Shown in pieces: positions 14,796 through 43,200 of a stretch of DNA of 64,000 bases. Made by a program: the position numbers and the translations under genes. The notes under the pieces were generated by a model. That model was given only the letters and a program-made list of their open reading frames with translations, ran no database searches and was not told the origin of the DNA. This DNA is from Raja brachyura. Taxonomy: Eukaryota. The stretch's first letter is position 1, and each line of letters opens with the position of its first letter. Where the stretch lies: positions 14,198,001-14,262,000 of the forward strand of contig OY740821.1 of NCBI GenBank assembly GCA_963514005.1. The letters are read 5' to 3'.

Positions 14796-14796
14796 A

Positions 14797-14866: not shown

Positions 14867-15554
14867 ACATGCAACCAAGGCATGTAATTCCATTAACTGG
14901 ATCACAATAAAGCAAGAAAATAAAAAAAAAATGCGTACATTATCCTGTTTGTTGCCTCTTGATTTTGATATCATTTGTATAAATGGATTGGATGCACTCC
15001 ATGCCATGAAAGATATTCTCTTTGTTCACAAAAAAAGACACAAAGTGCTGGTGTAATTCAATGGGTCAGACAGCATTTCTGGAGAACGTGGATAGCCGGT
15101 GTTTCGGGGCGGGACCATTCTTCAGACTAATTTTTGTAGGAGAAAGTTGGATGACGGGATAGGTTTGGGCAAGTGATAGGTGGATATAGATTGGGGGGGG
15201 GGGAAGTATTGATTGGCAGATGGCTGGAAAAAGGCAGAGATGAATACCCCCCCACCCCATCTCTCATGTGCAGGAATTCTGCACCAGCGCGATATCCATC
15301 GCTGCAGAGCAATGACCGGGCTGTTTTCAGTGCGTCACCTTCGACAGGAGCTGCTCCCCGTCGGACGCTGTCCCCAGGCCTGGCCCGGCCCAGCCTTCCC
15401 ACTGACGTCACCGCCAGTGGCAGCAGTGCCTCGTGACGGCATTGTCCTGCCGGAGGCTCTCGGGGAAACAGGAGGACCCCGTGGAGGAGGATCTCGGAGG
15501 ACCCGGTTGAGGAGGGAACTCTCGGGAAACAGGAGATTTTTTTTTAATTAACAA

Positions 15555-16622: not shown

Positions 16623-16920
16623 CCTAAAAAGTGTGAGATAGAGATAACAAAGACGAAGCACAAAATGTGAAGCCAGAGGAAAGTATATATATGTGGACGG
16701 GGACAGGGGGGAAGAGATAAATGGAAGCACATCTGGGTGGGGCACAGGGAAGAGAGGGGATAAAGGGCGAAGGGGTCTGTGCTTGTAGGTTTAGTTACCT
16801 AAAATGTAAGAATTTGTTTCAGGGATCAGGCACCCTTGTGAGATGGCCTGCCTCATAGAGACAACTGAGAATAATTAGGACCTCAATGTTGGGAATGTTG
16901 GTCTGGGAAAGAAGATTGAT

Positions 16921-18395
16921 GGTGGTGGTGCAGCTGGTGGAGTTGCTGCCTCACAGCGCCAGCGACCTGGGTTTGATCTTGATCTCAGGTGCTGTCTGTG
17001 CGGAGATTGCACATTCTCTCTGTGGCTGCATGGGTTTCTGGGTGCCCCAGCTTCTTCACACATCCCTAAGATGTACGGTAGTCAAAATTGCTGTAGAAAC
17101 TCAGCGGGTGCGGCAGCATCTATGAAGCGAAGGAAATAGGCAACTTTTCGGGCCGAAACCCTTCCTCAGACTACTCCTTATCTACTCCTTCTTAAACCTA
17201 AGATGTATGGGTTTTTTAGGTTATTTTTTTGTAAATTGCCCCAAATGTGTAGGGAGTGGATGAGAAAGTGGGATAACATGGAACTAGTGTGAACGGATGA
17301 TCGATGGTTGGCGTTGACTTGGTGCATCAAATAGGTATGTTACAAAACTTACCTTGAGCAGCGCTGCAGTTCTGCCGCTCCCCGTGTGCGCAACTTTGGC
17401 GCCTTTCAGAGGGGGGCGGGCTTAAAGTGCCGTTTTTCTTCAGACTGGGCAAGTCGATCAATGTCGGGCGATTTCGTTGCGGAAGAAAAATCGCTCCGAC
17501 ATTTCATTAATGAAGGTATTTTAAAATTACGCTAGATTATTTATTATCTAGAGTAATTTTAAAATCACCTTCAAAAGCCGTGAGCGCCGATAACAGGAAG
17601 GATTTTGCGTAGTGGAGAAAAAAAGGTAAATAGTTTATTTTTATATTAAAAGTTGTTTTTTATGGAGGCTTTAATAATATTTTCATGTTGCGAAATGGGG
17701 TCCAAAAAAAATGTATGAACCGGCTGTATTTTTTATACCGACTTGACTGCAAACCACAACGTTCCAATCCACCGCATTCCACTAAAACCCACTCGCTAGT
17801 TGATTTAAATGGCCATTAATTTACAGGCATTAAACACTAAATTCCTTCCATTTGGCCCAGAAATTCATGAAAATGAGATTTAAAAATTATGTTATATTGT
17901 GGATTATTGTGTGAATGTTATTTGGACACTTGGGCAATTTAAAAAAACTTTATCTTTTCTTAGGAAATGGATAGATGTTTAGATCTACTCATTGAATTTT
18001 GTAATTAGATAACTAATTATATGCTTTAATTTCAGGTCATCCAAGTAAGATTGTTTCATATTTGTTTCAGAATGCTTCAATCTATAATAACTGGAAATTT
18101 CATTGAGTTCTCTTAATTTTTAACAAAGCTATGGGCTTTTAACGATTCTAGATCACAGCTTTTGAGTTAAGTCAATTGAAAGGCAATGGGGAACAAGATG
18201 CTAATTTCCGAGTATGAAAATGGTCATAACTTTCTTAATACTGAAGATATGAAAGTGAATTAGGTGTCAAATTAAACTTCTTTTTATGCTTTATCTGATG
18301 GGATAAATTGCAGACTTGATTTTTAAAATCTCAAAATTGTGTAACATTGCTACATCAAAGGGCCTGTTTCCTCGATGTACCCTTTAATCAATCAA
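16921..18395 (+). mobile_element. HE1/V-SINE-like SINE interrupted by a Penelope terminus (about 17080-17172) and a DNA transposon
   Basis: tRNA-like head ggtggtgcagctggtggagttgctgcctcacagcgccagcgacctgggtttgatc. The tail aaagggcctgtttcc resumes at 18353. Confidence 0.7.
17332..18352. mobile_element. Non-autonomous DNA transposon, copy 1 (imperfect TIRs, 7-bp TSD catcaaa)
   Basis: Starts TAGGTATGTTACAAAA and ends TTGTGTAACATTGCTA. catcaaa at 17325-17331 and 18353-18359. Closely similar to 30270-31304. Confidence 0.9.
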
Positions 18396-21505: not shown

Positions 21506-22214
21506 AAACCATGTAACTGTGGGCCAGACACTTTTATCCATTGATTTTAATTTTATCATGGCTTTTTGATGCCACACTTGCTGCCCTGACATCACAGCTA
21601 GTCACTCTTATCTCACCTCTGGGATTTGTTGAGAATAAAATTTCCTGATGTATTACAGTACTCATTAAAAGTGTTATTATCAAGTAAAAACTGGTTTTGG
21701 TTTCACACTGATATTAATGGGTATGACAATTCCCATTATATTTGCAGCTCGGTAGTTGTTCATTCACCCTTTTTTTGCAATTTTTGATTTCGGCTCGGGA
21801 GTATTGTGTTGCCTGTGGTGAGCAGTGGAGCAGGTTGCAAACCAATTAGTAAATTAATTGGTTACATTTGTATAATCAGGGATATTCATGAATAATCAAT
21901 CCGCAGGAAATGATTTTGGGGTAGAATTAACAATTTGGTAGATTCTATAATCTGAATGGAATGAATGAGCTGGATGAGTCAATGGCCCAATCTGTTCCAT
22001 GCTTTCTCATGTGTCAGTGTTATCGAGTCACACAGCACAGAATACAATCCCTTCAACCCACCACGTTCATGCTGACCATCGATCTCCACTAATCTGATTT
22101 ACCGGTTAGTCCATTGACTTCTATACCTTGGTAATTTGACTGTTTGCCTGGATAGTTCTTAAATGTTGTGAGAGAAACTATAGAGGATTTAGAGAAACAG
22201 AATGGCAGTGGGTT

Positions 22215-22939
22215 ATATGGAAGTTTTAGAGACTTAGACCTTAATTAAAAACATTTATCACAGCCAGCAGCAGAGATGTCAGCTATTTTATGTAATCAGA
22301 CATCAGCTCCATACTCATTCACGTGCTTCAGCATACTTATTCACGTGCTTGTTTGTTAGTTACTCAGCAGCACTTAATTAAGTATTTTTATTTAGTATTA
22401 AGTCTCTTTATTTAGTATTGTCTTTTTATTTAGCAAACAAGTTGCTTCTTATTTTTACTTTTACTTTTGCTTTGTACTCTTAATAAATACATTTGCATCT
22501 TTGTGTAAAACATATAAACCAATATGTAACAGTGTAATATGGTGTAACCCTGTAACAGTAGTTAAAACTTAATGGGGGCAGAAGGTAGCTGAGAGATTAG
22601 AAGTTAAACATAAGGGTGGCAAACAAGGAGAAATAATGAGGGGAGGTGTGGAGACTGAACCAAGGCCGAAACATAATGGTGGCAGGACAGAAGAGATTAG
22701 TCCTGAAGGTAGATTGATGCAAAAGGAGTACAGCATGCAGATAATGAAGCAAAGATAAGACTGAAAAACTGTAATAAAGAGCTGCCTGGTTCTGTGTATT
22801 TTTGAGCAATTAGAGAACAGGCCAAGGTGTCCTCTCTGACTGCTCCAGCCAATATTTGCAAATAAAGGCTTTTCGTCTTCTTGAAGAATTCTCTGTGTCT
22901 GTGTCATATTATCCAAATTTGAGTCTTAAAACCACAACA
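22215..22939 (+). mobile_element. Probable solo LTR upstream of copy B
   Basis: About 720 bp absent from the paralogous site near 6590. It ends ...aataaagg...gagtcttaaaaccacaaca (CA), with a degenerate inverted match at the left end (ggaagttttagagact). Confidence 0.5.
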
Positions 22940-22959
22940 AAATTCCCTCTTTTATTCCC

Positions 22960-23341
22960 TGCCCAATTCCTGTGGTCCACTGAACTGTCAGCAGGGTGGG
23001 AAGTACCATGTCATATAACCATATAACAATTACAGCACGGAAACAGGCCTTCTCGGCCCTTCCAGTCCGTGCCGACCATTTATTTTCCCCTAGTCCCATC
23101 TACCTGCACTCAGACCATACCGCTCCATTCCCTTCCCGTCCATATACCTATCCACTTTACTTTTAAATGTTAAAATCGATCCTGCCTCCACCACTTCTGC
23201 AGGAAGATCATTCCACACCACTCTCTGAGTAAAGAAGTTCCCCCTCATGTTACCCCTAAACTTCTGTCCATGGAGTGACTAACTTAATCTATGCAGGAAG
23301 ATGCAGGCTTTATATGAAACCAACAGTGTAGTCCAGAGCAG
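22960..23341 (+). pseudogene. Degenerate elastase exon-7 relic upstream of CELA1 copy B, split by an antisense CR1 fragment (about 23013-23264)
   Basis: Removing the insertion gives NSCGPLNCQQGGKYHV|HGVTNLIYAGRCRLYMKPTV*SR, compared with functional [40 protein letters not shown]. Confidence 0.75.
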
Positions 23342-23813
23342 GTGTGGAAAGCATGTTTCCTTCCCTGAGGATATTAGTGTTTATTGACAATCCGGCAGTC
23401 TTCATGGTTAGTTCATTTCTATGGCCAACCCACACATCATTATCAGTATTATTGAATTCAGTTTCACAACCTGTAGGCCAAGTTTGGAATTCGAATTACT
23501 AAGTTGTTATTCCAAGAACACAATCACTACATCACGATGTTCGAGGATGTTCTCACTCTTCATTACACAGTTGCAGCAAAACAGAGTGAGACCCCATCCC
23601 ACAAAGGAGCAAAGGAAGATCAAAGTGTAGGTGTCCTATTTGGACTCATACATTTACAATAGCATTGGCAGAGGATCGGCAGCAGGTCCTTTTTGCCAAA
23701 GACAACAACGGGGTGACTGCGAAAAAGATAATGGAAATAAACACTGCACAAGGTTTTCAGTTTTTCCTGACATAGGCACATTAACCTATTTCTGTTTTGG
23801 AACAGAAACTGAT

Positions 23814-23833
23814 ATCACCTGTAGAGTTTCTCA
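23814..23833 (+). promoter_or_regulatory. PTF1 bipartite site, CELA1 copy B
   Basis: atCACCTGtagagTTTCTCA, with the same spacing as in copy A. Confidence 0.7.
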
Positions 23834-23971
23834 TACTATCAATTCTGGCAGCCCCAAATAATGTCCAATGCTTATCTTTTACTGTTAAATATCAACATTG
23901 TGGTTTTCTCATGGTTACGAAATGAGCTGAAAGTCTATCCAGTTTACGGCAAGTGTCTGATATGATCTGTG

Positions 23972-23978
23972 TATAAAT
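23972..23978 (+). promoter_or_regulatory. TATA box of CELA1 copy B
   Basis: TATAAAT about 50 bp upstream of the ATG. Confidence 0.75.
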
Positions 23979-24018
23979 GCTGGGCCATGCAGTCAAAACG
24001 TTCTACAATACATCTGCT

Positions 24019-27000
24019 ATGATGTTGCAACTGTTGGTTTTAGCAAGCCTTGCCCTGCTTGGTAAGTACAGCTTCAATTAGTTTGCTACAAAAAGAGTTG
24101 CTCTATTTCTAATGCAGAAAAAACATTGCATTTTGCGCTTTTTTTGACAGCCAAGTACTTTAAAAAAAGTTTTATTTTTATTTATTAGAGGTACAGTAAA
24201 TGACATCAGTGTATGTCCCATATATATTATTACAATCACTGTACCCCTTAGTTTTTAAGGCTATTAAAAAAAGGAATAGAAACAGAGAAAGTGGGAGAGA
24301 ATTGTGAAAGTGAAGAAGCGTGACAAAGGGAAAGAAGAGAGAGCCCTTGGTCGAGGAGTTAGAGAAAGGAGATTAAGAGATAGACCCTAGAAAAGAAGAG
24401 AGAGAAAGAAGAAAAAAGGAAAATACTGTTACTTTATTGTAAACATCATGCAAAAGGAATTTACCAACTCGGCAATTTTTCATCCCCCTTTACCAACACC
24501 CGACGCTGGTACCTTTTTGAGGTACTATTGCACCCTATCCTTGTAGTAGATCTATAAATGCAGACCACGTCTTATAGAAACAATCTGATTTTCCTGCCAG
24601 GCGGAGTCTCATATCTTTCAGATGTAGTGTTTCAAACATAGTTGAAATCCACATATTTTTACCGTTGGTATGGGAGCATTTTTCCAGAATTTTAAGATGA
24701 GCTTTTTTCCAGTTATTAACCCGTATTCAAATAGATTCTTTTGAAACACATTTAATTCAGGGCTGCCTTCCGTTGTTCCAAAAATAATCCATTCTGCTTT
24801 TGGTGTCAGTTTTACGTTAAATAATTTTGTGAAGATTTCAAAAATTCCAGTCCAAAATTTTTGAATATTTATACAAAAGACAAATGAGTGCGCTATAGTA
24901 GCTTCTTGAGACTGGCATTTATCACAAATAGGTGAGACGTTGGGAACAGCCAAGTACTTTAAATGCCATTTAATGCATTGTAGCAATGATACGCAATGAT
25001 TTGATAAAAGCGGTTAATTACATGACAAGAGAAGCATGCAGCTACATAAGGGACACGGAGAAGCTGATCATCGGGGCAGTTTTGTCCATGGTCATGGGAG
25101 GCTTTTTATAGTAAAAAAACTGCATGACATTTTTATCCATGTGATGATATTTCCACACGTCAGTAGTCATTATTGGCTCAAGAGTAACTCGGGAGAGGAA
25201 CTTGGCACATCGCAGAAATGAGAAGTAAACGGCAAACTTAGACATAACCGTGGGAATTTGGTTAAACACTTGAACATAAACTTGGAATCTCGTACATAAC
25301 CACAAGTCTGATTTTCTCTTTCACTCGAGGTCACTCGTGGGTCAACTCGCACTGTGAGAAACATTAGTTGTTACTGACCAGAAAATTAAATGCCAGGCAG
25401 TTGCTATTTCAAATCAAATGAGTCTCGTGAAGAATAAAGTTTACTAAGGAGCAGTTGAACCAGATTGAAACTTTACGTAATTGACATCAAAGACAGCAGT
25501 CCTGGGAAAAGTTGAAGGTTCCATCTCCAGGTGACAATCTAGAATGCCCCATATCCAGTAGCAAATGCAGAAGGTCCTAGCTCCAGCAGAAAATCTAGAA
25601 GGTCCCATCTCCAGTCCTGCCTCCACTTGTGATATCAGATTGGAAACGCGTGAACAGAAGAACTGCTCAACCGCATTCCAAGAGAAACAGCAATGGATCA
25701 TAGAACCAGAGCAACTGAATCCTGTCGAATTTTCCACCTTTCCTGGTACCTTACGATTCCAAATGTATCAAAAGTATTGCAGGTTTATGTAATCAGCCTA
25801 TATATCATCGTCGTCGAACAACACTAAACTGTATGGTGAGTAAAATTGGACAATTCACTCAGACAGGGCACAAGAATGGGTAATAAAGAAGACAAAAATA
25901 TTGCTTTTTGATGCTTGGGAGAGGGTGATTAACATGTAGGCTTAAGTCTGAAGAAGGGTCTCGAGCCGAAACGTCACCCATTCCATCTATCCAGAGATGC
26001 TGTCTGTCCCGCTGAATTACTCCAGCATTTTGAGTCTATCTTCAGTTTAAACCAGCATGTGCAATTCCTTCCTACACATGTAGGCTTAAGTTTTGGAATC
26101 ACACAGAACTCCCATCATTCTATTCATGATCCGCACCGTATAAATATTCCAGCGGTCAGCGTCCTGACACTGAAGGATGGCTAATAATTTGTACTTAGTT
26201 TCTTTTATTTGCCTATTTGGCGCAGCCAATTTTCCTAGGACTAGATAAACTATTTTTAGTGCTGTTGCCTTGTTGTGCATATTATATTGCAGGAGCAGGG
26301 CATGGTGATGATGGTTCAATTGAGTGAAAAGCACATTTATTTACATAAAGGCTAATCAAACATGGAATGAACTTATGAACAAATTGCATGCTACATTCAA
26401 GAGACCTTAGGGTCTTTTGTAATGGATGAACTTGGGATAAATTATCTTCTTCATCTACGGCACGATGGCACAGCAGTAGAATTACTGCCTTGCAGTGCTT
26501 GCAGCTCCAGAGACCTGGGTTCGTTCCTGACTTTAGGTGCTGTCTGTACGGAGTTTGTATGTTCTACCCGTGACCCCGTGCATTTTCTCCGAGATCTTCA
26601 GTTTCCTCTCACACTCCAAAGACGCACATGTTTGTAGGTTAATTGGCTTGGCATAAATGTAAAATTGTCCCTAGTGTGTGTAGGATAGTGTTAATGCACA
26701 GGGATTACTGGTCAGTGTGGACTCGGTGGGCCGAAGGGCCTGCTTCCGCACTGTTTCTCTAAACTAAACTAAACTAAATTCATAAATAAGACAAATTGAA
26801 CAGTTCTACAGGTTAACAATTTGACCTGACCTGCTCTGGGACCTATTGAAATTTGAATTCTCACATTACTGATGGAATACAGTGCCTTTTACAGACTTCC
26901 CGAATACATGAATTTAATTTTAAGATAGCAAACGTCAGTAAAGATGTCATGAAAACATTTCATTTTCTCAATGTATACAGGGCTCTGTTCTGAAAACAAT

Positions 27001-30000
27001 CGAGTCATTGGAGGGACTGAGGCAAATCGCAATGCGTGGCCATGGCAGGTGAGAAAGATAAAACATCACCTCAACAACAACAACAACATAATCGTAGGCG
27101 CTCTATAAACTCAGAGAGAATGAAAATACTTGTATTAATAAGTCTCCATCACTTTTCTGTTTTCTGCCAGCTTTTCTAGCCACATTTTCTGTTTTTTTTA
27201 ATATGATTTTAACATGTGCCAGTCTAATCATTTTTTTCCCTTGACCAGATTTCTCTTCAAGGTCGGGCTGATTACTGGTACCACTCCTGTGGAGGGACTT
27301 TAATTCGTAACAGATGGGTGGTAACTGCTGCTCACTGTGTGGACAGGTGAATGATTTTGATTGGTACTATTTGTAATTTATAACCTATTCGCTGAGATCA
27401 GCCTGAGCCTCTGCAGGTGTAGTTTAGTTCAGTTTAGTTTAGATATACAGAGTGGAAACAGGCCTTTTTGCCCACCCAGTCTGCGCCGACCAGCAAACAT
27501 CCTTGCACTAGTTCTGGTCCGACACGCTAGGGACAATTTACACGCCAATTAACCTACAAACCTGCGCGTCTTTGGAATGTGGGAGGTAGCCGGAGCACAT
27601 TCAAACTCCGTATAGACAGCACCCACAGTCAGGATAGACCCCAAGTCTCTGGCGCTATAAGGCAGCAACTCTACCTCTGCACCATTGTGCTGGTAAAATC
27701 CAAAAGAGCAACAGAACCCAAAACTCCTTGAAACATTTATTAAGGCTAAATATGTGCAAGCACTAGAAATAAGATACAGTAAAACTCCATCGCAGGTGAT
27801 AAACTATTGACCAACATCCACTATAAATCCACTGACTCCCATGGCTATCTGGACTACACTTCTTCCCACCCTGCTTCCTGTAAGGACTCCATCTCCTACT
27901 CCCAATTCCTCCAACTACGCCGCATCTGTACCCAAGATGAGGTGTTCCACACCAGGACATCAGAGATGTCCTCTCTTCAGGGAACGGGGGTTCCCCTCTT
28001 CTACTAGAGATGAGGCTCTCACCAGGGTCTCTTCTGTACCCCATCACTCTGCTCTCACTCCCCATCCCCCCACTCGTAACAAGGGCCGAGCCCCCCTTGT
28101 CCTCACCATCCACCCTACCAGCCGTCACATACAACAAATAGAACAAATAATCCTCTGACATTTTAGCCACCTCCAACGTGATCCCATCACTGCCACATCT
28201 TCCCATCACCTCCCCTGTCTGCTTTCCGTAGAGACCACTCCCTCAGTAACTCCCTGGTCAATTCGTCCCTTCCCACCCGCACCACCCCATCTCCGGGCAG
28301 TTTTCCTTGCAACCGCAAGAAATGCTACACTTGTCGCTTTACCACCCCCCTTGACTCCATTCAAGGACCCAAGCAGTCTTTCCAGGTGCGGCAGAGGTTC
28401 ACCTGCACCTCCTCCAACCTCATCTATTGCATCCGCTGCTCTAGAAGTCAGCTGCTCTACATCGGCGAGACCAAGCGTAGGCTTGGCGATCGCCTCGCCA
28501 AACACCTCCGCTCGGTTCGCAATAAAGGGCCTGTCCCACTTTCACGACCTCTGCCGAGTTTGCCCTCGACTCATACTCGCAGCATGGTCGTCACAAGGTC
28601 ATAGGTAGGTCATAGCAGGCCATGATGCTAGTCGTAGGTACTCGTGGCATCAAGTAGGTCGGGGCGTTTTTTCTAGCCTGATGAAAAATGTCCACGAGTA
28701 AAAAAGGTTGTGAATTAGGTCGTGAAAGTGGGACAGGCCCTTAACTAACTTGATCTCCCGGTGGCTCAGCACTTCAACTCCCCTTCCCATTCCGAATCTG
28801 ACCTTTCTGTCCTGTGCCTCCTGCATGGCCAGAGTGAGGACCACCGTAAATTGGAGGAGCAGCACCTCATATTTCGCTTGGGCAGTTTGCACCCCAACGG
28901 TTTGAACATTGACTTCTCTAATTTCAGGTAGTCCCTACTTTCTCCTCCCCTTCTCAGCTCTCCCTCAGCCACTGGCTCCACCTGCCCCCCCCCCCCCCCC
29001 CCACACCCTCACATCAGTCTGAAGAAGGGTTTCAACCCAAAACGTTGCCTATTTCCTTCACTCCATATATACTGCATGAACCGCAGAGTTTCTCCATCAT
29101 TCCTGTCTACCTTCGATTTTCCAGAATCTGCAGTTCCTTTTTAAACATACAGTAAAACTCTGTTCCTTTGGCATGCTTAGAGCTCCTGTGAATTTCAAGG
29201 GAGCACAGGAAACGTCACCAGTGAGCTGGATGCAAACCATCGGGATTTCCAAATAATGGGATAGCAGATTATCTATGTTTTACAATATTGCAGGAAACTA
29301 CAAAAAGTGATGGTATAAAATACTGTATCACACCATTCACTAATCTGATTTATGTACTTCAACACCCTTATGCAGCTTTGACTTGACTGTAACTGTAATT
29401 TCAATTCATATATTCTTTCTAGCTCCGACTCTCAACACAACTCACTCTGGTGATCACTCGAGCTCTTGTGCATGTGTGAGCTGTGTAAAACTAATTTCAC
29501 TGTGCAGTGCATACATGACAATAAAGAACCATTGAACCATAGGCGTTTGTTTCCTGAGTACAGCTGATCAGTCGTCCAGTTTTTTCGCAAACTGCCCTTT
29601 AACTTTAACACACGCACCTCTCACCCAGGTAATCAATGAGAGGTGTCTGTTTCTTTGCATAAAAGTGATGAGTCCTGTCTTGTGAGCTACCCAGACTTAT
29701 TCTGAACCCTCCATATTTTACAGTGCAAAAAAATCACAACTGCAATAATTTGATCAATACACACTTAACATGATTTTGTGATGCCATCAGTATCTTAATG
29801 TTTGCTGTGAGTCTGGGAAATGTTTTTTTTCCTATCCTGTGTCAGTAAATAAGTTTACTACATTTTCAGAGGAAGGCAATGCACTACATTCTGTGAAAAT
29901 ATTCCCAAACCTTTCCACCTTTGTAATTTTGAAATCTGTGTTTGTGTCCTAAGTATTTGGTTCTTCCCATTTCCCTCCCTTTCTCCAGATCGTTGTCTTT

Positions 30001-33000
30001 CCAATCTATTCATTCGGTTTCCTCCCAAACTCCAAAGACGTACATGTTTGTAGGTAAATTGGGTTGGTGTAAGTGTAAATCGTCCGTAGTGTGTGTAGGA
30101 TAGTGTTAGTGTGCGGGGATCATTAGTCGATGGGGACACGGTGGGCCGAAGGGCCTGTTTCCGTGCTGTGTCTCTAAAGTAAATTAAACTAATAAAATGT
30201 AGGGCATTCCGTTGCTGAAGCCACCTTCCCGCACACCAATCTACCCTTGCCAATCCATTTTGGTTAAAGTAGGTATGTTACAAAACTTACCTTTACCGGC
30301 GCTGCACTTCTGCCGCTCCCCGTGTGCGCGACTTTCGCGCCTTGCAGAGGGGGGCGGGCTTAAAGTGCCGTTTTTCCACAGGCCTGGATAATCGATGAAT
30401 GTCGGGCGATTTGGTTGCTGAAGAAAAATCGCTCCGACATTTAATGAATGGTGGTATTTTTAAATTACTCTAGATTATTTATTAACTAGAGTAATTTAAA
30501 AATCACCTTCAAAAGCCGTGAGCGCAGACAACCGGAAGCATTTTGCGTAGGGGAGAAAAAAAGGTAAATACTTTATTTTTATATTAAAAGTTGGTTTTTC
30601 GGGAGGCATTAATAATATTTTTATGTTGCGAAATGGGGTCCCCAAAAAATGTATGAACCCCCAATATTTTTCCCCCCGACTTCACTGCTAACCGCAACGT
30701 TCCAATCCACTGCATTCCACTAAAACCCACTCGCTAGTTGATTTAAATGGCCATTAATTTACAGGCATTAAACACTAAATTCCTTCCATTTGGCCCAGAA
30801 ATTCATGAAAATGAAATTTAAAAATTATGTTATATTGTGGATTATTGTGTGAATGTTATTTGGACACTTAGGCAATTTTAAAAAAGTTTATCTTTTCTTA
30901 AGAAATGGATAGATGCTTAGATCTACTCATTGAATTTTGTAATTAGCTACAATTAGATAACTAACTAATTATATGCTTTAATTTCAGGTAATCCAAGTAA
31001 GATTGTTTAATATTTGTTTCAGAATGCTTCAATCTATAATAACTGAAAATTTCATTGAGTTCTCTTAATTTTTAAGAATGTTGCGGACTTTTAACTTTTC
31101 CAGATCACAGCTTTTGAGTTCAGTCAATTGAAAGGCAATGGGAAGCAAGATGCTCATTTCCGAGTATGAAAATGGCCATAACTTTCTTAATACTGAAGAT
31201 ATGAAAGTAAATTAGGTGTCAAATTAAACTTCTTTTTATGCTTTATCTGATGGGATAAATTGCAGACTTGATTTTTAAAATCTCAAAATTTTGTAACATT
31301 GCTAGTTAAAGTGACTTTTGTTTTCACTTACAGTCCAGGTATAACACGCCGTGTGGTCCTGGGTGATCACAACCTTTATGAGGATGACAAAACCGAACAG
31401 TACATTTCCGTACAACATGTCATCATTCATGAAGGTTGGAATGGTGATCTTGCTCTTGGGTATGTAACAATATCATATTTTGGACCATTGCATATTGTGT
31501 TGACATTTGTGTTGTTCCAAATAACTTGTGTTGACAAGTTATTTTGAATAACTTTTGAATTTTGAATAACTAGTCTATTACAGCCGCTACTCGAATCACA
31601 AGCTCATAAAAACACCATTGATGTGGAATTACCAATGACTCATTGATAACTTTGTGTAGCAAAAAAAATATATGCCCACACATCGATTCTTCAGTGGTCC
31701 ACCACTCACACTCGTACCACATTTAATGGAACGTGTGCGTCTGTGTGTGAGAGGGAGGCATTCATCTCCTACACAGATCTTTCACCGAAGCATTTGAGAA
31801 GATGAGTGTTACATTCAACATCCAAAAGATAAAGGTCTTCTACTAATCTACCTCACTACACCATGTCAACGGCCTGGAAAACATGCACCGCTTCCCATGT
31901 CTAAGAAGCCGCCTCTCAGAAAAGGTAGACATTCATATGAAATACACCACTGCCTTCAATGAACCAGAACAAACGTTGGTCAATTGAGAAAAAGGAGTAT
32001 TTGAAGGTCAAGATGTCGTCACTCGCATGACTGACAAAGTAGACCATGACCAATATATCACCATGAACTAACAATCCACCCACCCCATCAGCCGCCAACT
32101 GCCCCATCTGTGGAAGAGTCTGCCGTTCCTACATTGGTCTCATAAACCAGCTCAGACCCACAAACCAGAGTGGTCGTACATCATCCTTGATCCCAAGGAG
32201 ATGCCTCAGAAAAAGAAGAAGATGCTGACACATGGTCGTATGTATGAGGTAACAGAGGGGACTGCAGTTTGAAGGACAGTATTTAAGAGAGGAAGGGTGA
32301 ACAACAAGGAAAGAACCTAAAACTGAATGTAATCCTAATTGTAGGCACTCGCCTTACCATGCATTTGCAACACGAGTTAAAAAATAAAATAGACACTAAT
32401 GCTGCAAATCCATTTTTAATAGGAATGATATTGCGCTGCTTTACCTGGCGCAGGATGCTGTCCTGAACCAATTTGTCCAGCTTGGAAATTTGCCCGATGC
32501 AGGTGCTACCTTACCAAATGACTATCTATGTTACGTCACTGGCTGGGGCTACACTTACAGTAAGTCATTTCAGAATCATGTGCATTTGTGCATCTCTTTC
32601 CTTCCCATAAATGAGTGGGTGATGGTTGGCTCAATGGCTCCAACATAAATAATGACCAGGATTTTTATCTTCACCGCAATATGTAATCTGATCATGGTAA
32701 GGATTTCTGACCTTGTGTTCTTTAGCTTTTTTCCAGAAGGGCTACAGCAGCCTCTACCAGGGAGTTAGCCAGGAGGGGGTCACAGAGACTGTGCAGGAAA
32801 GGTCATATAGTAGTATGAAATGGTCAACAACTTTGTACCATTCTCTCTGCAAATGACATCACCATGGACTTTGCTACTTAACATATTACAGGGCCTTTAT
32901 TTTCTTATGGTGACACACAATGGGTTATCTCTCATGTCCAGCATTGCTTTAGCAAATGGAGTACTGATTCCGCCAAAGCAGAGATGGTTGAAAACTTCAC

Positions 33001-36000
33001 ATTTCTAGGAGTAAATATATCACCAGCAAAATGTCCTGGACCACCCATATTGAAGCAATGTCCAAGAAAGAACACTAATGCCTCGACTTCCTGAGAAGGC
33101 TTAGGAAGTTTGGCATGTTCCAACAACTCTCACCAACTTCTACAGATGGACTGTAGAAAACATTTTATCGGGATGCATCACAATATGCTCTATAGAAGAC
33201 CGTAGGAAATTGCAGAGAATTCTGGATGCAGCCCAGATCATCACACAAACCTACCTCCCTTCCATTGACTCAATTTACACCTCACACTGCCTCGGCAAGT
33301 CCACCAGCAAAATCAAGGATGAGTCGCACCCTGGCCACTCCCTATTCTCTCCTCTCCATCAGGCAAGAGGTACAGAAGTGTGAAAATGTACACTAGATTC
33401 AGGAACTGTTTCTTCCCAACTATTATCAGGCAACTAAACCATTCTACCATCAACTAGACAGCAGTCCTGAGCCACTATCTAACTCATTGGACACCCTTAG
33501 ACTATCTTTGATCGGACTTTACCTTGCACTAAATGTTATTCACATTATTCCCTTTATCATGTCTCTATACACTGTGGATGGCTTGATTGTAATCATGTAT
33601 TGTCTTTCTGCTGACTGGTTAGCATGCAACAAAAGCTTTTCACTGTACCTTGGTACACGTGACAACAGACTAAACTCAACTAAACTGCAAATTGCTTCAC
33701 ATGTGTTGGAAGTGGAAGTGAAAGTGGGATAACATGGAACTTGTGTGAACGGATGATCAATGGTCAGCGTGGACTCGATGGGTTGAAGGGTGGTATCTCC
33801 AAAGTAAACTAATTAATAAAGCGGCAGTCCTTATTTTCACTTCTATGTTTTTGTAAAACCTAGCTATATATTTTTCATCTTGTTTTAAGGAATTTGTGGT
33901 TTCTGAAGTTTAAAGTAAGTGTGCTTGTTTAGGCACATGCCTAAAGTAAACCAGACTGATCCCCCGGGGCTATAATTTTCTTCAAGCTCCTTGCCATGTA
34001 ATGGTCAAAAGGATGGCTTCAGACAAAAAGGCAATATGATGCTGGATTACCGTCTAAAATATCATGTGGAATATAATAATAACTAATGACAAAAATGCAA
34101 TAGCAATACAGAATTTCTTCTCTTGATGCAGACAATGGATATGTTAGTCCTACTCTTCAACAAGCTCCTATCAAGGTTGTTTCCTATGAAGTATGCTCAC
34201 AGCCTGACTGGTGGAGCCACTATGTCAACACAAATATGGTGTGTGCTGGAGGTGACGGCATCACTTCTGGTTGTCAGGTAATAAACTTAGCTACTCGCTT
34301 TCAATGGAAGGACATTGCAACAATTCCCAAAGTTTAGACACCACTTACACCTCTATCTTTTATTAACTTCAACTGGCTTCCTTATCAAGTATTCCATGAG
34401 CTCCCTCTCGTTTTTACTGACACAAACTTCCCAATTGTTTCTTCAAAGTCCTCAACATAGTTCAGTACTCACATAAACTGTCTCAGAACATGGTAGGTTC
34501 CAATTGCACTCCAGAGACGTGAACATTTAATCAGGGTTGGTACCTTGTGCTGCTCAGAAGGAGTGCCATACTCTTGGAGGTATCATCTTTCTGCTAAACC
34601 ATAAGAATGAGGCTTTTTCTGGCTTAGTGGGTGGACATAAAAGATCACTTGACTATTTTGAAAAGGAGCAGGGGAATTCTCCCCAGTGTTCTGCAACTTG
34701 TTCATTATTTTCTCTGTTGTCGTTCTCTTGCTGTCAGCAATTTCTTGCTGACATATCAGTCCTTACTTCACTTCCATTATCTTTTGCAAATATGTCTCTT
34801 CATTTTCCCCAAATACAATGTTCTTTTGCTTTTTCTGTTCCTTCCCATTCATTTTCCTTTTTGTGTATGACTCTTGATTTCAATTACCTTTTAAAATGTA
34901 ATAATATATTTTATAAACCAGTCTGAGAGATTGAAAGTAATGATTTCACCAACTTTCCTCAAAGGGAGATTCTGGAGGTCCTCTGAATTGTGAGCAGAAT
35001 GGTATTTACCATGTCCATGGAGCCACAAGCTTTGGAGCTGCAGCAGGATGTGACATGTTCATGAAACCAACAGTATGGACCCGCTTCTCAGCTTACATCG
35101 ACTGGATCAATACTGTACGTTAGCTTTGGATTTCCATTATAATTTTATGTTTCATACAAGATGCTACTACAAGCACCACTTATTTTATGTGAGGGTCACC
35201 TTCTTAAAAATCAGTGCTTATCTCAAAAATGCATAAATTAAGCATAAGAATGTATGCAAGTGGTACAAGTTAAAGGAAAAGCCATATAAGCATCTACATC
35301 ACACAATAAATAGTTCATTTATGACAAGCATTATTATTTTACCTTACTCATTAATAAAGAAAAAAGTTAATAAAGTAAAAACAGAGATGTTAAAAGATTG
35401 AGAGGGGAAGATAAACAACTTCAATATGTTGGTTGATGGAGAAAACAGAGTTTCGCACTAAAAAGATGTGTGAAATACAGCAAGTTGAAATAAACACGCA
35501 CCAAGCAAAGATGACGCAGACAAAAAGTGAGAAAGTGGTAAGTGTATTGTACAGTATCTTGCAAGGCATCGCACATGACTACGCTGTTAGGCGTGGATTT
35601 GAGTGCATTATTTCAAGAATACGAGTGCGTAAATTAGGCGTTGGTATTAATTATACAAGCACACTATTCCAAAAATGTATGGATCAAACACGTATAAAAC
35701 GTGATATGCCTGTATTCTGATTTATTGCACCTTGCACAGAGCTTTCCGTGATGGGATCATGGGATCTCATCTTCATTATGGCTTCCTTAATGATTATCCA
35801 TCCATTTAAATCTGAAATTACTTACAGAGGGAAATGGATTGGGGGAAATGCAGAGATGCTGATTAACACGATAAATACACGCAAACAAGGGAAATACAGC
35901 CTCTAGTAAATGTCCAAGCAATACTAAACATCAGAGGTGTAGTCAGGGTAGAAATGCTGGAAATAAAGTAAATGTGTTTTCCCCCAATGTTCCACTGAAG

Positions 36001-36304
36001 TTGCAGCGAGAGATTAGAAATTCAATAGACAATAGACAATAGGTGCAGGAGTAGGCCATTCAATGTGATCATGGCTGATCATCCCCAATCAGTACTCCGT
36101 TCCTGCCTTCTACCCATATCCACTGACTCCGCTATCTTTAAGAGCCCTATCTAGCTCTCTCTTGAAATTCTTAAGGAAATTCTACTCAACTCCACCTCAC
36201 CCAACACATCTGTAAGTCATGTTCCTGTTCAAATCCAGATCAAAGCATTTCAGAAATATTAATGAAAATCATGTTTTATTTTCCAGAAAATCGCTTATTA
36301 TTAA
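24019..36304 (+). CDS. CELA1: Chymotrypsin-like elastase 1-like, copy B, 260-261 aa: join(24019..24061,26981..27048,27249..27346,31334..31459,32423..32559,34132..34277,34965..35114,36287..36304)
   Basis: Same 8-exon structure and phases as copy A. ATGATG start (24019 or 24022). Catalytic triad intact (TAAHC, NDIAL, GDSGGP). S1 residues S189/G216/T226. Ends KIAYY*. AATAAA at 36370. Confidence 0.92.
24165..24945 (-). mobile_element. L1/Tx1-type LINE 3' fragment with 18-bp TSD
   Basis: ORF2 zinc knuckle [21 protein letters not shown]...FW. TSD acagccaagtactttaaa at 24147-24164 and 24946-24963. Confidence 0.85.
25945..25978 (+). ncRNA. Minimal type I hammerhead ribozyme-like motif (Penelope-associated)
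   Basis: agt-CTGAAGA-agggtctcgagcc-GAAA-C-GTC-acc: catalytic boxes CUGANGA and GAAA, a stem II hairpin, a loopless palindromic stem III (ACGT), and a GUC cleavage triplet. Confidence 0.6.
25947..26075 (+). mobile_element. 129-bp Penelope terminal insertion with a hammerhead-like core and 15-bp TSD
   Basis: TSD acatgtaggcttaag at 25932-25946 and 26076-26090. The empty site is in copy A near 8997-9011. Confidence 0.85.
26458..26780 (+). mobile_element. HE1/V-SINE-like SINE, full length
   Basis: tRNA-derived head with A/B-box-like motifs (tggcacagcagtag...ggttcgttcct), a conserved core, a CR1-type tail and (ctaaa)n. Confidence 0.8.
27421..27690 (-). mobile_element. HE1/V-SINE-like SINE
   Basis: (tttag)n tail at the left, followed by the reverse complement of the SINE body. 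Confidence 0.75.
27788..29146 (+). mobile_element. Penelope-like retroelement (5'-truncated RT end + GIY-YIG endonuclease), 14-bp TSD
   Basis: [17 protein letters not shown]...[11 protein letters not shown] (RT thumb) and [14 protein letters not shown]...[13 protein letters not shown] (GIY-YIG). TSD atacagtaaaactc at 27774-27787 and 29147-29160. Confidence 0.9.
28526..28741. mobile_element. PIF/Harbinger-type MITE nested in the Penelope element
   Basis: 25-bp TIR AGGGCCTGTCCCACTTTCACGACCT and its reverse complement, with a TAA TSD on both sides. Confidence 0.85.
30270..31304. mobile_element. Non-autonomous DNA transposon, copy 2 (7-bp TSD gttaaag)
   Basis: TAGGTATGTTACAAAA ... TTTTGTAACATTGCTA. 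gttaaag at 30263-30269 and 31305-31311. A single gttaaag is at the empty paralogous site near 11471. Confidence 0.9.
32950..33690 (+). mobile_element. Rex1/Babar-like LINE 3' fragment in intron 5 of copy B
   Basis: Decayed FLRRLRKFG...NFYR..VE..LSGCIT..., followed by a gtgacaac..actaaact tail. Confidence 0.7.
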
Positions 36305-39255
36305 ATGCTGGATTACGACGGCCAAAGTGCAACATGCAACCAATACATCTATTTCCATTAACTGGATTAAATAAAGCAATAAAATAAAATTCATAATTTT
36401 TCCTGTTTGTTGCCTCTTGATATTGATATATAGTGTCATAACAACTTGCCCACATCGAACATGTCCCATTTCATTCACTTTACATTTTATATATATTTTT
36501 AAAGTTTCTGGCACTCCATGGTGCTTTAGAGACATGGGAGGGGTGTCATTAGTTGGCCAGGGGTGTATTGACGTTTTATTATCTCATGACCTCTGTTAGT
36601 CAGGAAAAACTGATTATCCAGAAAGACTCTGGAACTGAGGGTGACAGAAAATCGGTGGTCAACCTGTATATTGTATCCCTCAGAATACTCTCTGGTGACT
36701 TTCCGACCACAGATGTTAGGCTCACTGGCCTGTAGTTCACAACTGTTGCCCTGCAGCCCTTCTTGAACAGAGGCACAACATTTGCCACCCTCCAATCTTC
36801 CAGTACAGTGAAAAAGTATGAGATAAGGATATAAGAATAGAAGATGCGCAAAATGTGAAACTAGGGGAAGGAGTATAAATGGAGGTGGACGGGGGGAAGG
36901 GGAAAGGGAGAAAAGAGTGCGCATCCAGGTGAAAATTTGTAGTAGGTGCTAAATTCATTAAATTATCTACAGCACATTCGGAAACACAGATAGAGACATA
37001 GATAAGGCATTATTGCAGCCTTTAAAGATATGTTAGATATGGGAAAATAAAACTTACATCCTGATTTTAAGGCTGATATTTTTGATTTGTGATCGTGCTA
37101 GTGAGATATCAATTTAAATATTTACATTTTCAACACTTAATATGTAAAATGTTGCGGGGAGTACTACAATTTCAAACATGCTATACTTTGAATGTGATAG
37201 TAAATAAACCCCTAGCTTCCCTTTCATTTGAATGTAAAAGATCGCAAAAGCATTCCTTGAGGAAGAGCAGGGCAGTTTTCCCTAATGTCCTGTTCAATCT
37301 GGTCATCATCAGGCTGCTGTTTGCAAGAACTCAGTATGCACAAATCGACTCTCACATAATACATATTACAAAGTGATTACACACGGAAGTACCAATGCTT
37401 TGGACATCCAGCAGTTGTGCAAAATGCTACATAAATGCAAATTCATTCCGTTTATTATTACAGTAAATGGAGGAAAGCGTGAATTGAAGCATAATTTGCT
37501 GCTACACCCAACCAGATTCCACATTGAGAGTAATATTCTGGGATATCCACCTATATCATTGGGAGCGTTTTGTATATCTCAGACAATTTCCTCAGACAAT
37601 CAGAACTTTAAACAGGCATAGTATTGGGGCCACGGTATGTATATTCAACCTATCAAATTCTAGAAGCAAGGATCACTTACATCACAGGATTATTTCAATA
37701 AAGTTATTGCTAATTGAGTGTTGAGTGTGAATTAATAAATCAAGCTCTACCCAAAGAAAGTTGTGTGGCATTTGGTTGCCATGATAATTGCCACAATATA
37801 ACCCTAAGACTTTACTAAGATACAAATATATATACTCATCCCATCTTCCAATTGCTCCAAAAGCTTTTCACTGTACCTCAGTACACGTGACAATAAACTG
37901 AATTGAACTGAACCAAAAAATCCCATGAGATGCCTCAAAGCTGAAAATTGGTCATTTCCCATCAATTTTGAACTCACTCAGTCATCCCGTTCTCTCCCTA
38001 ACCCTATCTGTAAAACCATTGCCATCCTTACCACTGGGTAGCTGGGTGCTCCAGGATTGCTGATCTAATTCAGTTACAGTGGTCCAAATGGATTTTTGGA
38101 CGTTCCTGGATCAGAAATTACCTTCAAACCATCCATGTGTTTTTCCATCTGGAAGCAATAGAGTAAATATTTATCAAAGAAATCTTGTTTTTAGGTGAAT
38201 AATAAACACTAGTTCGTCAAAGAAAAAGTGGTCTGTAGAGAGCAGTTGTATGAGAGCTGCCTCACAATCAAAACATAACACGTCTTCCACAAAGTTGAAG
38301 TGTGTTTGTGAAAAGTGAAAAATTAGATGCTAGAAATCTGAAATAAAAAAACTGAAAATTCTGGATAAATTCTGCAGGTCAGGCACTATCTGTGGAAAAA
38401 GAAAAACAGAGTTGACATTTCAGGTCAATCACATTTCATCAGTCTGGTGAAATATAAAAGATCCTTAATTTGAAATGCTAACTCTGTTTCATTCTGCATA
38501 GATGCTGCCTGACCTGTTGCTATTTCCACCATTTTGTTTTCTTCCTGTCCATCTGGTCAAGTCTTCTTACTGGTCAGTCACTCCTGACTGAGGATGACTT
38601 GCTTCCACTTTAGCCCTATGAATCCTAGGGGTGGCTGATGAGACCAATAAATATAGGAACTACAAACCCTTCTACAACAAGGGCGGGAGGTTCCTGACAG
38701 GGTGAGTGGACGGGTAGCTTGTGAGATGGTGTGCTCCTTCTCCACTTTCGGTGGTTATGATCCACAGAATTCCAAATATAAGTGGGGAAGTTGCATTTTT
38801 TCCCAATATACCTTTGAGCAAATCTTTGAATTTTTATCTGTCTGCCTGCTAATCTCTTGTGATGGAGGTCAGAATAGAGTGTGTGGTTTTGAGATCAGGC
38901 ACGCCAATGAGATGACCTGCCTCATGGAGGCAACTGAGTGTAATTAGGACCTGAATGTTGGTCTGGAAAAGAACATTGATGTTGATTTTTTATCCTCCTT
39001 CCAGACAGTTTGAATGGTACAACAATAAATGTAATTGTGCCAGCAGAGCACAGTTGGAATACCTCCGGTATTATCTCTGTGGAGCTTGCACGTCCTCCCT
39101 GTGACCACGTGGATTTCCTCTGGTTGTTCCAGTTTGTAGGTTAATTGGTCTTTGTAAATTGCCCCAAGTGTTTAAGGAGTGGACGTGAACGTGGGATAAC
39201 ATAGAAACAGTGTGAGTGGGTGATTGCTGATCACCGTGGACTTCGTGGGTCAAAG

Positions 39256-39291
39256 CAAAGATCGTATACTAGCTCCGCTATAGGATCTTTG
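39256..39291. mobile_element. 36-bp TIR-only transposon remnant with 8-bp TSD ggtcaaag
   Basis: ggtcaaag|caaagatcgtatactagctccgctataggatctttg|ggtcaaag. Confidence 0.85.
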
Positions 39292-39370
39292 GGTCAAAGG
39301 GCCGTGTCCAGGTTAGGCAAGAGATTGGTGATTTTTCATGAACACTGGCCAGTGAAATAGTGGTTGAAAT

Positions 39371-39392
39371 CAAAGATCCTATAGGATCTTTG
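39371..39392. mobile_element. 22-bp perfect palindromic TIR remnant with 8-bp TSD gttgaaat
   Basis: gttgaaat|caaagatcctataggatctttg|gttgaaat. Confidence 0.85.
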
Positions 39393-39499
39393 GTTGAAAT
39401 GGGACGGAAGGGGAAGTAGGTAAAGGGGAATGGTACTAACTGAGTCGGAGCATGGGGTTGGAGAGTCTGACCCTGCGCTCATTCAGATCTCTCTAACAT

Positions 39500-40205
39500 T
39501 ATCCTATCGCCCCGAATTGTGAACACTTCCATCAGGTAGTACCTCGACCCTATGCATTTTGGTGAAAAGAAGCTGAATATCTCCGCTTTCCCCCTCACAA
39601 CTAAAGCCTCTCACCCACCGCTGCCGCCCACGCCTCTGCTTGCGTGAGACTCTTGTGTCCCGTCTCCACGGCAACACGAAGCCGAGCCCGCCAAATTTGA
39701 CCATTCTGGGAATAAACATGTAAACATGGCAAATGTCGTTAGTGGGGACCCTCTGCGGCTTTATTTAACGAGACATTGTTTAACTTGCCTTTTTTTGAGA
39801 GAAGATAGACGACATCTCGAGTCGACGACCTTTGCACCCGCCCAGCCCCCTTGTTTTGTAAGATGGCGCTCGCTCGGGGATGCTTCCGGCTTCAGCGGCT
39901 AAAGGGACGTAGTTCCTCGGAGTTTTTATACTATCCGACGATCTGTGTCTCTCGGTAAGAAACGTTTTAGCCTGGGGCTTTGGTGCTCTGTATTTATTAA
40001 TATAGGTCACCGTTTCTTTATTAGTTTTCCATCGTATCATTTCCAGACCTCCGAGTCCCGCGACCCACCCACACGGGTCGCGCAATAGCGAGGGTGTGTT
40101 CCAAATATTAAATACCCGGGTCACTGTCATCTGACAAATTCAACTTTAAGCATCACCAGTTAAACATTGCAGCAGCCGTCGCGCCTTCACTGAGGCTGCC
40201 GGTCA
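39500..40205 (+). promoter_or_regulatory. CpG-rich promoter of LETMD1
   Basis: High CpG density, GC boxes (cccgccc), a YY1-like AAGATGGCG overlapping the ATG, and an ETS-like CTTCCGG. Confidence 0.7.
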
Positions 40206-43200
40206 TTTTGTAGTGATTTCTAAAATCAAAGAATGATACCGCACAGAGTAGGCCTACATTTGTTTGGTAGAACTATTCCAATTAGTCCCTCTCCCTTTCC
40301 CACAAACCCTTTTTTGTTTTATGCTGTTCCATTTAATACAAGTCAGAGTAAACAGTTGTTTCTCCGGCCTGCAGGTTGTGATTAGTGGGTTACCACAGGG
40401 ATTGGTGTTTGTCAGTCGCAATTTATGAGGAATTTGGTTGAGGGGAGCAAATGTCATGTTTGTTGTGGTTTAAAAAGAGAGGAGGGTGCAAGGAGGCTTA
40501 AAGAGGATGCGGGCAAGCTAAGTGGGTGAGGACTTGACAGCTGGAATATGATGTAGTGAAATGTCAGATCATCTGTAGAAGCAAGGAATTGCAGATGTTG
40601 GTTTACAAAAAAAGACACAATGTATTTGACTAACTCAATGTGTCGGGCAGCATCTCTGGAGAACATGGCCAGGTGATATTTCAAGTTGGAATCCTTCTTC
40701 AGACATCCCAACCTGAAAGGTCACCTATCCATGTTCTCCATAGATGCTGCCTGACCTGGTGTGTTAATCCAACACTGTCCTTTTGACAGATCATCTGCCA
40801 TGGTGCACAAAATAGGAAAGCAGAGTTTTATTTAAATGGTGACAGATTAGAAAGTTGTTGTTCAAAGGGAACTGGGTGTTTCTGTGCACAAGAAACTTAA
40901 GACTAATATGAAGGTATGGGAAGTTGTTAATGGGCAAATGGTATGTTAGCTTTCGCTGTGAGAGGCTTTGAGTAAAGAGGTTCGACTGGCAGAGTCATCA
41001 TGGATTTAGGAAAGGGAGGTTGTGTTTTACAAATCAGTTTTGGGATTGTGAGCAGCAGAACAGATGGGAAAGCAATTGCTATTCTGAATTCAAAGCACCG
41101 CATGTGAGTAAACAAAGTGAGAGCATGTGGGACTGTGGTAATATGCTGGTGTGGATTGAAAATTGGTTTATGGACAGAAAACAGAATAGGAATTAATGGG
41201 TAGTTTTCTAGTTGAGGGGCTGTAATGGATTAGTTGTAATGGTGTTACAGGGTTTTGATTAATGCAAGAAAATGGTACTGAGGTAAAGGATGTTTTTTCT
41301 GAATGCAGAGCAGGCATGAAGGCTGAATGGCTGACTAATACTACTTCTGTCCTTGTCGGGGTCTCCAACACAACTGGGAGCTGCCCACTCCCGGTTGGGG
41401 TATAATTAACATTGCATAGGATACAGGTAGGGCATTTAAATTATTAATGGACAAACACGTGTAATAAATGTAACAATATAAACTGAGTGGGGAAATAGTT
41501 AATGTTTCAAGTTGGTGACCTTAGTGTAAGGTGGTAATTGAGCTAATCCATCAGTGCAACATTTTGTCTTGACAGGTGTGCCTAGCTGTGCAGGTGTGTG
41601 CATTAATGTCAATCTTATTTTGAGTACGTTACTTAAAAATCCTTATATAACTGAATCTGCAGTCAGTTTGCCATTTGAGGACCAGTGTCTTTCTGATGAC
41701 CAGTATAATTCTGGAGTGTTTTATAACAGCACTTGAGCGCAAAGCATTTTCAGTAGAAATGGTCAGTCTGACTCCAGCATTTTGTCTCTTATCTTTGATT
41801 ACCTTATAAAAGTTTCCTAGCGCAAAAGCAAATGCATCAGAAAAACAACTGGAAATGTAGAGATTGCTTATAATCTTCTAAAATCACCTGAGCGCAAAAT
41901 AAGCATTTTGTTTTCTAAAAATGCATCAAGAGTTTAAATCTCAATCTTGACAATGGTATTTTTTTTTAAAAGTGAGATGCTTTTCAATAATGAAGGTGAA
42001 GTGAACAAATAAATTAATCCAGGAGATTGTTATTTCCTAGTCAGGGTTGTGTTAGCTGATCTTGGCCAGGCCAGCAACAGGTATAATAAGACTTAGTGCT
42101 TTAAGGAAAGTTGGCCAAAGTTCCATGCCTTGATTGCTAATTAGTGACTGTAATCTGCATGTGCATGGGTCAGTTCAGGACCTGGTTTTCTAGTGCTGCA
42201 TTCTTCCTTTTCCTCTGTTCAACCCGAAGGTGAATTTGTGTTGGAGCAATGGGAGATATTCAAGGACAAGGAAGGGGGGGATGAATTTCAATCTGCTGAA
42301 GGTGTGAAGCAATGTTTTTGGGGGAAGTAAACAAGATAAAGGGATGCTCGATAAGTAGCAGAAAATTGGGAAATCTAGAGGCACAGAGGAACTTTGAAAT
42401 GTATAATCTAAAGATCCCTGAAGCTCAAAGAAAAACAGGAAGAAAATATGTTTATGAAGACACATGGGACATTCCTTAATAGGCCAAAGTTTTCAATATG
42501 AGCAAGGAAGTTGTGTGAGAATTGTATAAAATGTTAGTTAGATGACAGCTAGAAAAATGTGTAGAATATGGCTTGCCAAAGTGCAGAATGGACATGATTG
42601 TACAGACATTTTTGATTTTTTAATTTTAGATGAGACAGACTAGGGCTGTTTTTTCTGGAACAGACAGCAAGGGGAAATTTAAAAAGGGAAGTCAGTAATC
42701 AAGCGGCATTGATTTAAGATAATCAGAAGAAGGAATAGAGGGGAGTGCAGAATAAATTACCGCTCCCCGAGTGCCTGGAGGTCTGCATCTCACTGTCAGA
42801 TACCCTTAGCATCTTTAAAAAGATTCTGGACGGGCACTTGACTTGTCTACACACAAGGCTGTCGCCTAAGAGAATTGGGGCCCGTGATTAAGATGGATAG
42901 CTTGTACTCTGTCAAATGGCCTCCTTCTCTGCTTTACATTTCTATGATCCTTTCTGAGTACAGTTGAAAAGTAACAACATACTTTGTGGTAAAACTGCTA
43001 ACAGATTAATTGATAACTTTCTTATTTTATTTCCCTCGCCACCAATACTCCATCCCACCGCAGGCTTACTAGTCACCAGTTGTCACAATTTTTCACAACA
43101 GCGAAGAGGAGTACTTTAAGTTCAGCTATCATCTCAAAGGCCAAACGTTTGAATGCAAAATATGAAAAATTTCTGGAAATAAACTTTCCGCGTTTTTATG

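Follow-up and report, generated by a model that had tools for sequence, protein, structure and literature searches.

P transposase of Drosophila makes 8-bp target-site duplications and 17-nt staggered cuts, and P elements move in local hops, favour promoters and carry internal transposase sites (PMC7776569). Since one strand of each end is cut 17 bases inside the element, single-stranded stubs of both ends stay at the donor site. With hAT, Mutator and Transib transposases, by contrast, the hairpin forms on the flank and the element ends are lost from the site (PMC5499845), so direct scars of these superfamilies hold none. Flies have long provided examples of P scars, and in zebrafish mobile P-like elements have been described under the name Pdre (PMC7776569). 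Here we describe two inserts of 36 and 22 bp that lie upstream of LETMD1 in a 64,000-nucleotide stretch of the skate Raja brachyura (contig OY740821.1, positions 14,198,001 to 14,262,000 of the forward strand), hereafter the window. As a pair, the inserts are well supported as real transposon relics. Judging from their anatomy, both are putative P-type excision footprints, a reading to which we assign a probability of about 0.55; the attribution to a P element is probable, not demonstrated. The reading goes back to a preliminary description of the locus, whose premises about P elements and about hAT excision are both in print as cited above.

Two short inserts and their target duplications

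Both inserts are flanked by exact 8-bp direct repeats. A sequence scan reproduced the coordinates, sizes and duplications previously given for them, with the gap from insert 1 to insert 2 corrected from 80 to 79 bp. The features are as follows:

39248..39255, no strand assigned: left copy of target-site duplication 1 (GGTCAAAG); this stretch belongs to the 3' tail of a relic of a short interspersed nuclear element (SINE); the homologous 8-mer is single in 5/5 unbroken paralogues
39256..39291, no strand assigned: insert 1, 36 bp, with 14-bp arms around an 8-bp non-palindromic core
39292..39299, no strand assigned: right copy of target-site duplication 1, with the same letters as the left copy
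39363..39370, no strand assigned: left copy of target-site duplication 2 (GTTGAAAT), without a paralogous empty site in the window
39371..39392, no strand assigned: insert 2, a 22-bp perfect palindrome
39393..39400, no strand assigned: right copy of target-site duplication 2, with the same letters as the left copy
39040..39309, + strand: SINE-like host repeat, old and interspersed, broken by insert 1 (profile match 39131-39255, E 5e-12; 5' limit approximate)

The two inserts belong to a common family. The 14-mer CAAAGATCCTATAG, proposed earlier as their shared terminus, is exact in three arms out of four; the exception, on the left of insert 1, departs from it by two mismatches, which swap one self-complementary hexamer for another. 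Both inserts start with CA and end with TG. Insert 1 is built as 14-8-14, with arms complementary at 12/14 positions and complementarity ending after base 14, and can also be parsed as 17 + 2 + 17. Its 14-8-14 build with an asymmetric core presumably resembles tyrosine-recombinase sites, a likeness that would not account for the duplications. Insert 2 corresponds to two 14-bp ends overlapping by six bases in CTATAG. Fusion of two ends through this hexamer, as suggested in the preliminary description, fits the 22-mer, but joining bases 1-8 of insert 1 to its final 14 reproduces it just as exactly.

Read formally, the repeats at both sites are 10 bp long, since each insert ends in TG and the same dinucleotide stands before the left copy; the 8-bp reading is the one that keeps the inverted ends flush. 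The two target sites agree at 10/14 positions in the same orientation, a level of agreement with a probability of ~0.001 for random pairs, though picked post hoc. This likeness, together with the preceding TG, may reflect a target preference. Both targets are also preceded by GTG (39245-39247 and 39360-39362) and followed by GG, which is unexplained.

To assess chance occurrence, we looked for exact 8-bp direct repeats enclosing an insert of 22-60 bp, where the first 11 bases of the insert recur inverted at its other end with at most one mismatch. One match was obtained in 200 locally simulated 64-kb windows, compared with three in the real window. Besides the two inserts, the real window contributed 17527-17556, which was rejected as a comparable scar: it lies inside another element, where the repeat on either side is a self-complementary run of A/T that simply lengthens the hairpin. 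A stricter scan (exact 8-bp repeats flush with inverted ends, inserts of up to 3 kb) returned the two inserts only. The hairpin folds of both inserts beat 200/200 shuffles, which merely restates the inverted repeat.

Insert 1 interrupts the host repeat listed above, which has the build of a SINE and is taken to be one by likeness to elasmobranch repeats. The focal copy is old, with 24 and 30 mismatches per 109 aligned bases against two paralogues. A profile of the repeat gave 17 matches in the window, and the site homologous to target 1 could be placed in eight. Three were set aside (the focal copy, a copy broken by a 1-kb element, and the non-homologous 22014-22088); the remaining five are also seeds of the profile, and the target 8-mer is single in every one of them. 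At site 1 the two copies are identical to each other and differ from each paralogue at 2-3 of the 8 positions. Identical focal copies set against a single, diverged 8-mer in the paralogues mean that the duplication postdates the ageing of the SINE, and that the 36 bases are an insertion. Insert 1 is therefore a genuine insertion that duplicated its target and is more recent than its host repeat. At site 2, for which the window holds no empty paralogue, the exact duplication and the shared ends point to the same kind of event. Both inserts are thus supported as transposon-type insertions with target duplications. The SINE tail ends ~10 bp past site 1. Read on the opposite strand, 39310-39325 agrees with SINE tails at 9-11 of its 16 bases, which a small old inversion or chance may explain.

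Proposed P-type excision and the alternatives

We propose that, at the edge of the LETMD1 CpG island, a transposon with 14-bp inverted ends beginning CAAAG inserted at two points separated by 71 bp, making an 8-bp duplication each time. Its transposase would then have cut the copies out with a long stagger, leaving on the flanks single-stranded end tails of ~17 bases, by analogy with P biochemistry. At site 1, end joining may have sealed the tails with little trimming and two added bases, giving 17 + 2 + 17 = 36. At site 2, trimming or annealing at the self-complementary hexamer would have given 22. Both outcomes fit measured P junction classes. The scars presumably arose in the germ line and so entered the sequenced chromosome, as their presence there implies. 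For the nearness of the two sites, the best explanation is probably that one element hopped locally over a short distance or that open chromatin made both a hot spot; the local P hops cited in PMC7776569 are 50-150 kb, far above 71 bp. Two independent events had been suggested earlier. For the insertions this agrees with the differing duplications, but the two may have been successive hops of one element.

So far as their anatomy shows, the inserts would work like a P donor-site scar. Fly P scars that retain both duplications measure 4-44 bp with a median of 30, and are 35-37 bp long in 9/63 cases and 20-27 bp in 6/63 (PMC2895639 Table 1; three of the 66 isolates, in which a duplication was deleted, were dropped from this tally). 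A 17 + 2 + 17 junction is present in Table 3 of the same paper. In sizes and anatomy, the inserts lie within the range measured for Drosophila P footprints, which partly supports the preliminary description; its P-type parent is represented in the window neither by a long copy nor by a transposase. A broader proposal, that skates had a CAAAG-ended P transposon with a germ-line cycle, 8-bp duplications, local hops at CpG-island edges and long-stagger excision, is tentative, and we give it somewhat less than even odds.

Several observations weigh against a P-type origin. No longer element with these ends was found in the window in scans up to 3 kb and 5 kb, and a transposase domain was detected in 0/272 window frames of at least 62 aa and in 0/68 of an overlapping set, a search that short or frameshifted remnants escape. 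The sample is two inserts, and the 17 + 2 + 17 parse is post hoc, its junction not being placeable without the parent. The fly scar lengths come from Rad51-null animals, in which short scars are enriched (PMC2895639). The skate ends are unlike those of the zebrafish element Pdre2 beyond the first two bases, and zebrafish THAP9 in cell assays gave excision with larger flanking deletions and no integration (bioRxiv 10.1101/2024.03.22.586318). In human cells, the typical junction after P excision has lost both ends and duplications (PMC8230255 Fig. S6 text). These zebrafish and human-cell assays select for restored drug resistance, and neat stubs are not seen in them as described. The target 8-mers of hobo and P are similar, so targets do not separate P from a hobo-type hAT (PMC3276498), and hAT is a major, common superfamily in vertebrates (PMC4350176). 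Finally, the literature located reports no P elements or such scars in sharks, skates or other cartilaginous fish, a weak negative, as repeat databases and most subscription papers were outside its scope.

Further searches bear on the parent. Beyond the four arms, the window contains no further copies of the end (18 matches at three mismatches, against 16.3 expected); two copies bearing it occur in the 64 kb, both scar-sized and of unequal length. Domains matched by window frames are trypsin, LETM1, reverse transcriptase, ALKBH8_N, GIY-YIG and one sub-threshold PHD match. The inserts match no Rfam family or tRNA, and no plasmid among 72,556, in a search that did not extend to phage or E. coli collections. 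The paired arms have one match in a prokaryotic genome collection, obtained with a search pattern unable to match the 22-mer itself. This match, an intergenic hairpin of Neobacillus rhizosphaerae (L001:301-347), has identical 14-bp arms that continue into A/T tails, with no duplication on its flanks. It was judged unrelated and taken as a terminator-like chance match. Literature searches on the first 8 bases of the end together with transposons gave nothing evidently relevant among the matches listed (titles and the starts of abstracts), and those on end consensuses, P footprints and 7-bp hAT groups gave nothing on a CAAAG-end family. The catshark genome paper, in the part covered, gives DNA transposons as a total only. 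No eukaryotic genome search was made, so the superfamily is argued from anatomy.

The inserts might instead be extreme internal deletions of a hAT, Mutator or other parent that makes 8-bp duplications, produced with no long stagger, by aborted gap repair after excision or by host slippage between copies of the self-complementary hexamer facing each other across the element as a direct repeat. Loss between two CTATAG copies yields the 22-mer exactly, and template-slippage deletions are common among rice transposon polymorphisms (PMC4423477). Duplications of 8 bp are typical of hAT and also present in Mutator, whose range of 8-10 bp (PMC5499845) includes the formal 10-bp repeats, and prior abundance favours hAT (PMC4350176). 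Short inverted ends starting with CA likewise agree with hAT, as does the duplication length. Excision through a flank hairpin does not agree with the inserts if they are direct scars; an internally deleted hAT element is still compatible with them. Such a history nonetheless requires both copies to have shrunk to at most 36 bp with all four duplication copies intact, and excision in the hAT and Mutator superfamilies leaves no end from which to start (PMC5499845). The non-palindromic core and mismatched arms of insert 1, with complementarity lost after base 14, argue against a collapsed long perfect hairpin, and the other two-copy DNA element of the window kept its full 1 kb in both copies. 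We regard internal deletion as a possible but doubtful origin.

That the 36-bp unit is itself a complete micro-element, mobile in trans, appears improbable. It would explain the tidy 14-8-14 build with one self-complementary hexamer per arm, the relation of insert 2 to insert 1 by a single 14-base internal deletion, and the lack of a longer relative in the window. However, one 36-bp copy only is at hand, and a transposase complex that pairs both ends needs them to be several tens of bases apart, with P and hAT also needing subterminal binding sites. P indeed has internal transposase sites (PMC7776569). A non-transposon origin, whether as a palindrome that was duplicated or templated during repair, as one site duplicated in tandem long ago, or as a laboratory linker or contaminant in the assembly, seems marginally less probable still. 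The agreement of the targets at 10/14 positions (~0.001, post hoc) and the extension of the repeats to 10 bp would suit it. Against it, the 63 bases before each site are unrelated (p 0.24 and 0.36), on which ground an old tandem duplication behind the similar targets is not supported, and duplicating one insert would need the same three changes in both flanking copies. The lack of any plasmid match or Rfam family also speaks against it, as does the sole prokaryotic match, a hairpin without flanking duplication. A single composite element spanning both inserts was likewise rejected, as the outer flanks differ.

LETMD1 and neighbouring repeats

The gene downstream of the inserts is LETMD1, as first described. 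Three open frames match the LETM1 domain, and one of these matches LETM1 domain-containing protein 1 of Leucoraja erinacea and Rhinoraja longicauda at 89-90% identity and that of three rays at 69-74%. Further features of the locus and its paralogue are:

39863..39955, + strand: coding part of LETMD1 exon 1, by mapping of the Leucoraja protein; eight further exons follow, up to 51908
39501..40250, no strand assigned: CpG-rich stretch at LETMD1 exon 1 (CpG observed/expected 1.02-1.18)
16815..18391, + strand: collinear paralogue of the region, with a common unique 5' flank at 16815-16924 and the SINE at 17213-17331, resuming at ~18357

The coding part of exon 1 starts at 39863, and 29/31 of its residues (93.5%) match the Leucoraja erinacea protein. 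The inserts with their duplications lie 463-615 bp upstream of the ATG, slightly wider than the 470-600 bp first given. The CpG observed/expected ratio is 0.66 in 39251-39750 against 0.38 window-wide, and the inserts sit at the upstream, rising edge. A position in the promoter, as had been claimed, is approximate, because distances are counted to the ATG and insert 1 lies inside a SINE relic. The scars are proposed to be inert relics, without a regulatory role.

The collinear paralogue lacks the short insert. At the same SINE position it carries another, unrelated element of 1 kb, which is flanked by a 7-bp duplication. This non-coding element occurs twice (17332-18352 and 30270-31304; 1021 and 1035 bp, 91% identical), with imperfect TAG inverted ends and exact 7-bp duplications. 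For the 30270-31304 copy, the paralogous gene retains a single-copy empty site at ~11471. That the 17332-18352 copy shares the SINE position of insert 1 hints at a shared hot spot. One target of the 1-kb element fits the 1360 motif (PMC3276498) at 5/6 fixed positions, and hAT families with 7-bp duplications are present in Repbase (PMC4455052).

The window also contains a tandem segmental duplication (6392-14971 against 22022-36429) with a trypsin-family protease gene, mostly 80-87% identical, which extends collinearly to 16815-17331 against 38884-39254. The duplicated protease is presumably elastase-like. Within the segmental duplication, a 580-bp tract (12372-12951 against 32062-32641) that overlaps a protease exon is 96% identical, well above its surroundings; this may reflect gene conversion in recent time or a young insertion common to both copies. 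A fairly intact fragment of a long interspersed nuclear element is represented at 19842-20885 by an open frame of 348 aa that encodes a reverse transcriptase domain. At 28526-28741, a 216-bp element with perfect ~25-bp inverted ends and TAA on both sides lies at the end of a GIY-YIG frame, which we take to be Penelope-like. By the table in PMC4423477, this 216-bp element is Harbinger-like.

Comparison with described elements

Starts of the form CA-A are common among P-superfamily ends. The inserts have CA...TG ends, and Drosophila P and Pdre2 also start with CA, a trait that hAT ends share and that is therefore non-diagnostic. The duplications are 8 bp at both sites, within the 7- or 8-bp lengths of the P superfamily (P and 1360 lengths from PMC3276498). 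By the Repbase rule (positions 1-11, one mismatch; PMC4455052), the skate end aligns with neither of the two published ends compared, those of Drosophila P and Pdre2. Compared with the P motif GTCCGGAC and the hobo motif, target 2 shares the starting GT and the A at position 7, and target 1 the G and that A only. Both sites border a CpG-rich gene start, at a single locus. At 22 and 36 bp, the inserts have no room for subterminal transposase-binding sites or internal inverted repeats of the P type. P-superfamily membership is not established by these comparisons, as the duplication length and terminal CA, though present, are non-diagnostic.

The preliminary description had concluded that a once-active vertebrate P system was implied. 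Such a system is not new in itself, given the zebrafish Pdre elements (PMC7776569); the inserts are probably a new skate example of such relics. A long stagger is the signature of the fly P transposase, and the literature found, in the parts covered, shows none for a vertebrate enzyme acting on its own element. If the P-type reading is true, mobile P elements would extend to cartilaginous fish, and cut geometry could be tested from genome sequence alone. Scars of this kind, below the length of repeat annotation, would form a genome-wide fossil record of the cut offset of a vertebrate P transposase and of its repair spectrum, and a full-length copy could encode an integration-competent vertebrate P enzyme, unlike zebrafish THAP9 in assays. 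With a hAT or similar parent, the inserts would be ordinary deleted relics with no known effect on LETMD1.

Non-autonomous hAT and Mutator elements resemble the inserts in their 8-bp duplications, and hAT elements also in their CA ends and in the P-like target preference of hobo; unlike the inserts, their excision gives flank hairpins and damaged duplications rather than end stubs (PMC5499845, PMC3276498, PMC4423477). Miniature inverted-repeat P elements of Anopheles gambiae are likewise non-autonomous, with 8-bp duplications and, in some families, imperfect ends, but they are hundreds of bases long and still mobile, compared with 22 and 36 bp in the skate (PMC1562414). The zebrafish Pdre2/THAP9 system shares with the inserts a vertebrate host, 8-bp duplications, short (13-bp) inverted ends starting with CA and internally deleted copies (bioRxiv 10.1101/2024.03.22.586318; PMC7776569); the parts of the former paper covered describe no scar-sized natural Pdre2 remnants. 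Relative to the Drosophila P{wa} junctions, the skate ends have another sequence, their arms are complementary over 14 rather than at least 17 bases, and the setting is a natural vertebrate germ line. The P{wa} junctions are alike in keeping both 8-bp duplications with stubs of both ends between them, and were formed by short-homology, blunt or small-filler joins that include a 36-bp 17 + 2 + 17 product (PMC2895639).

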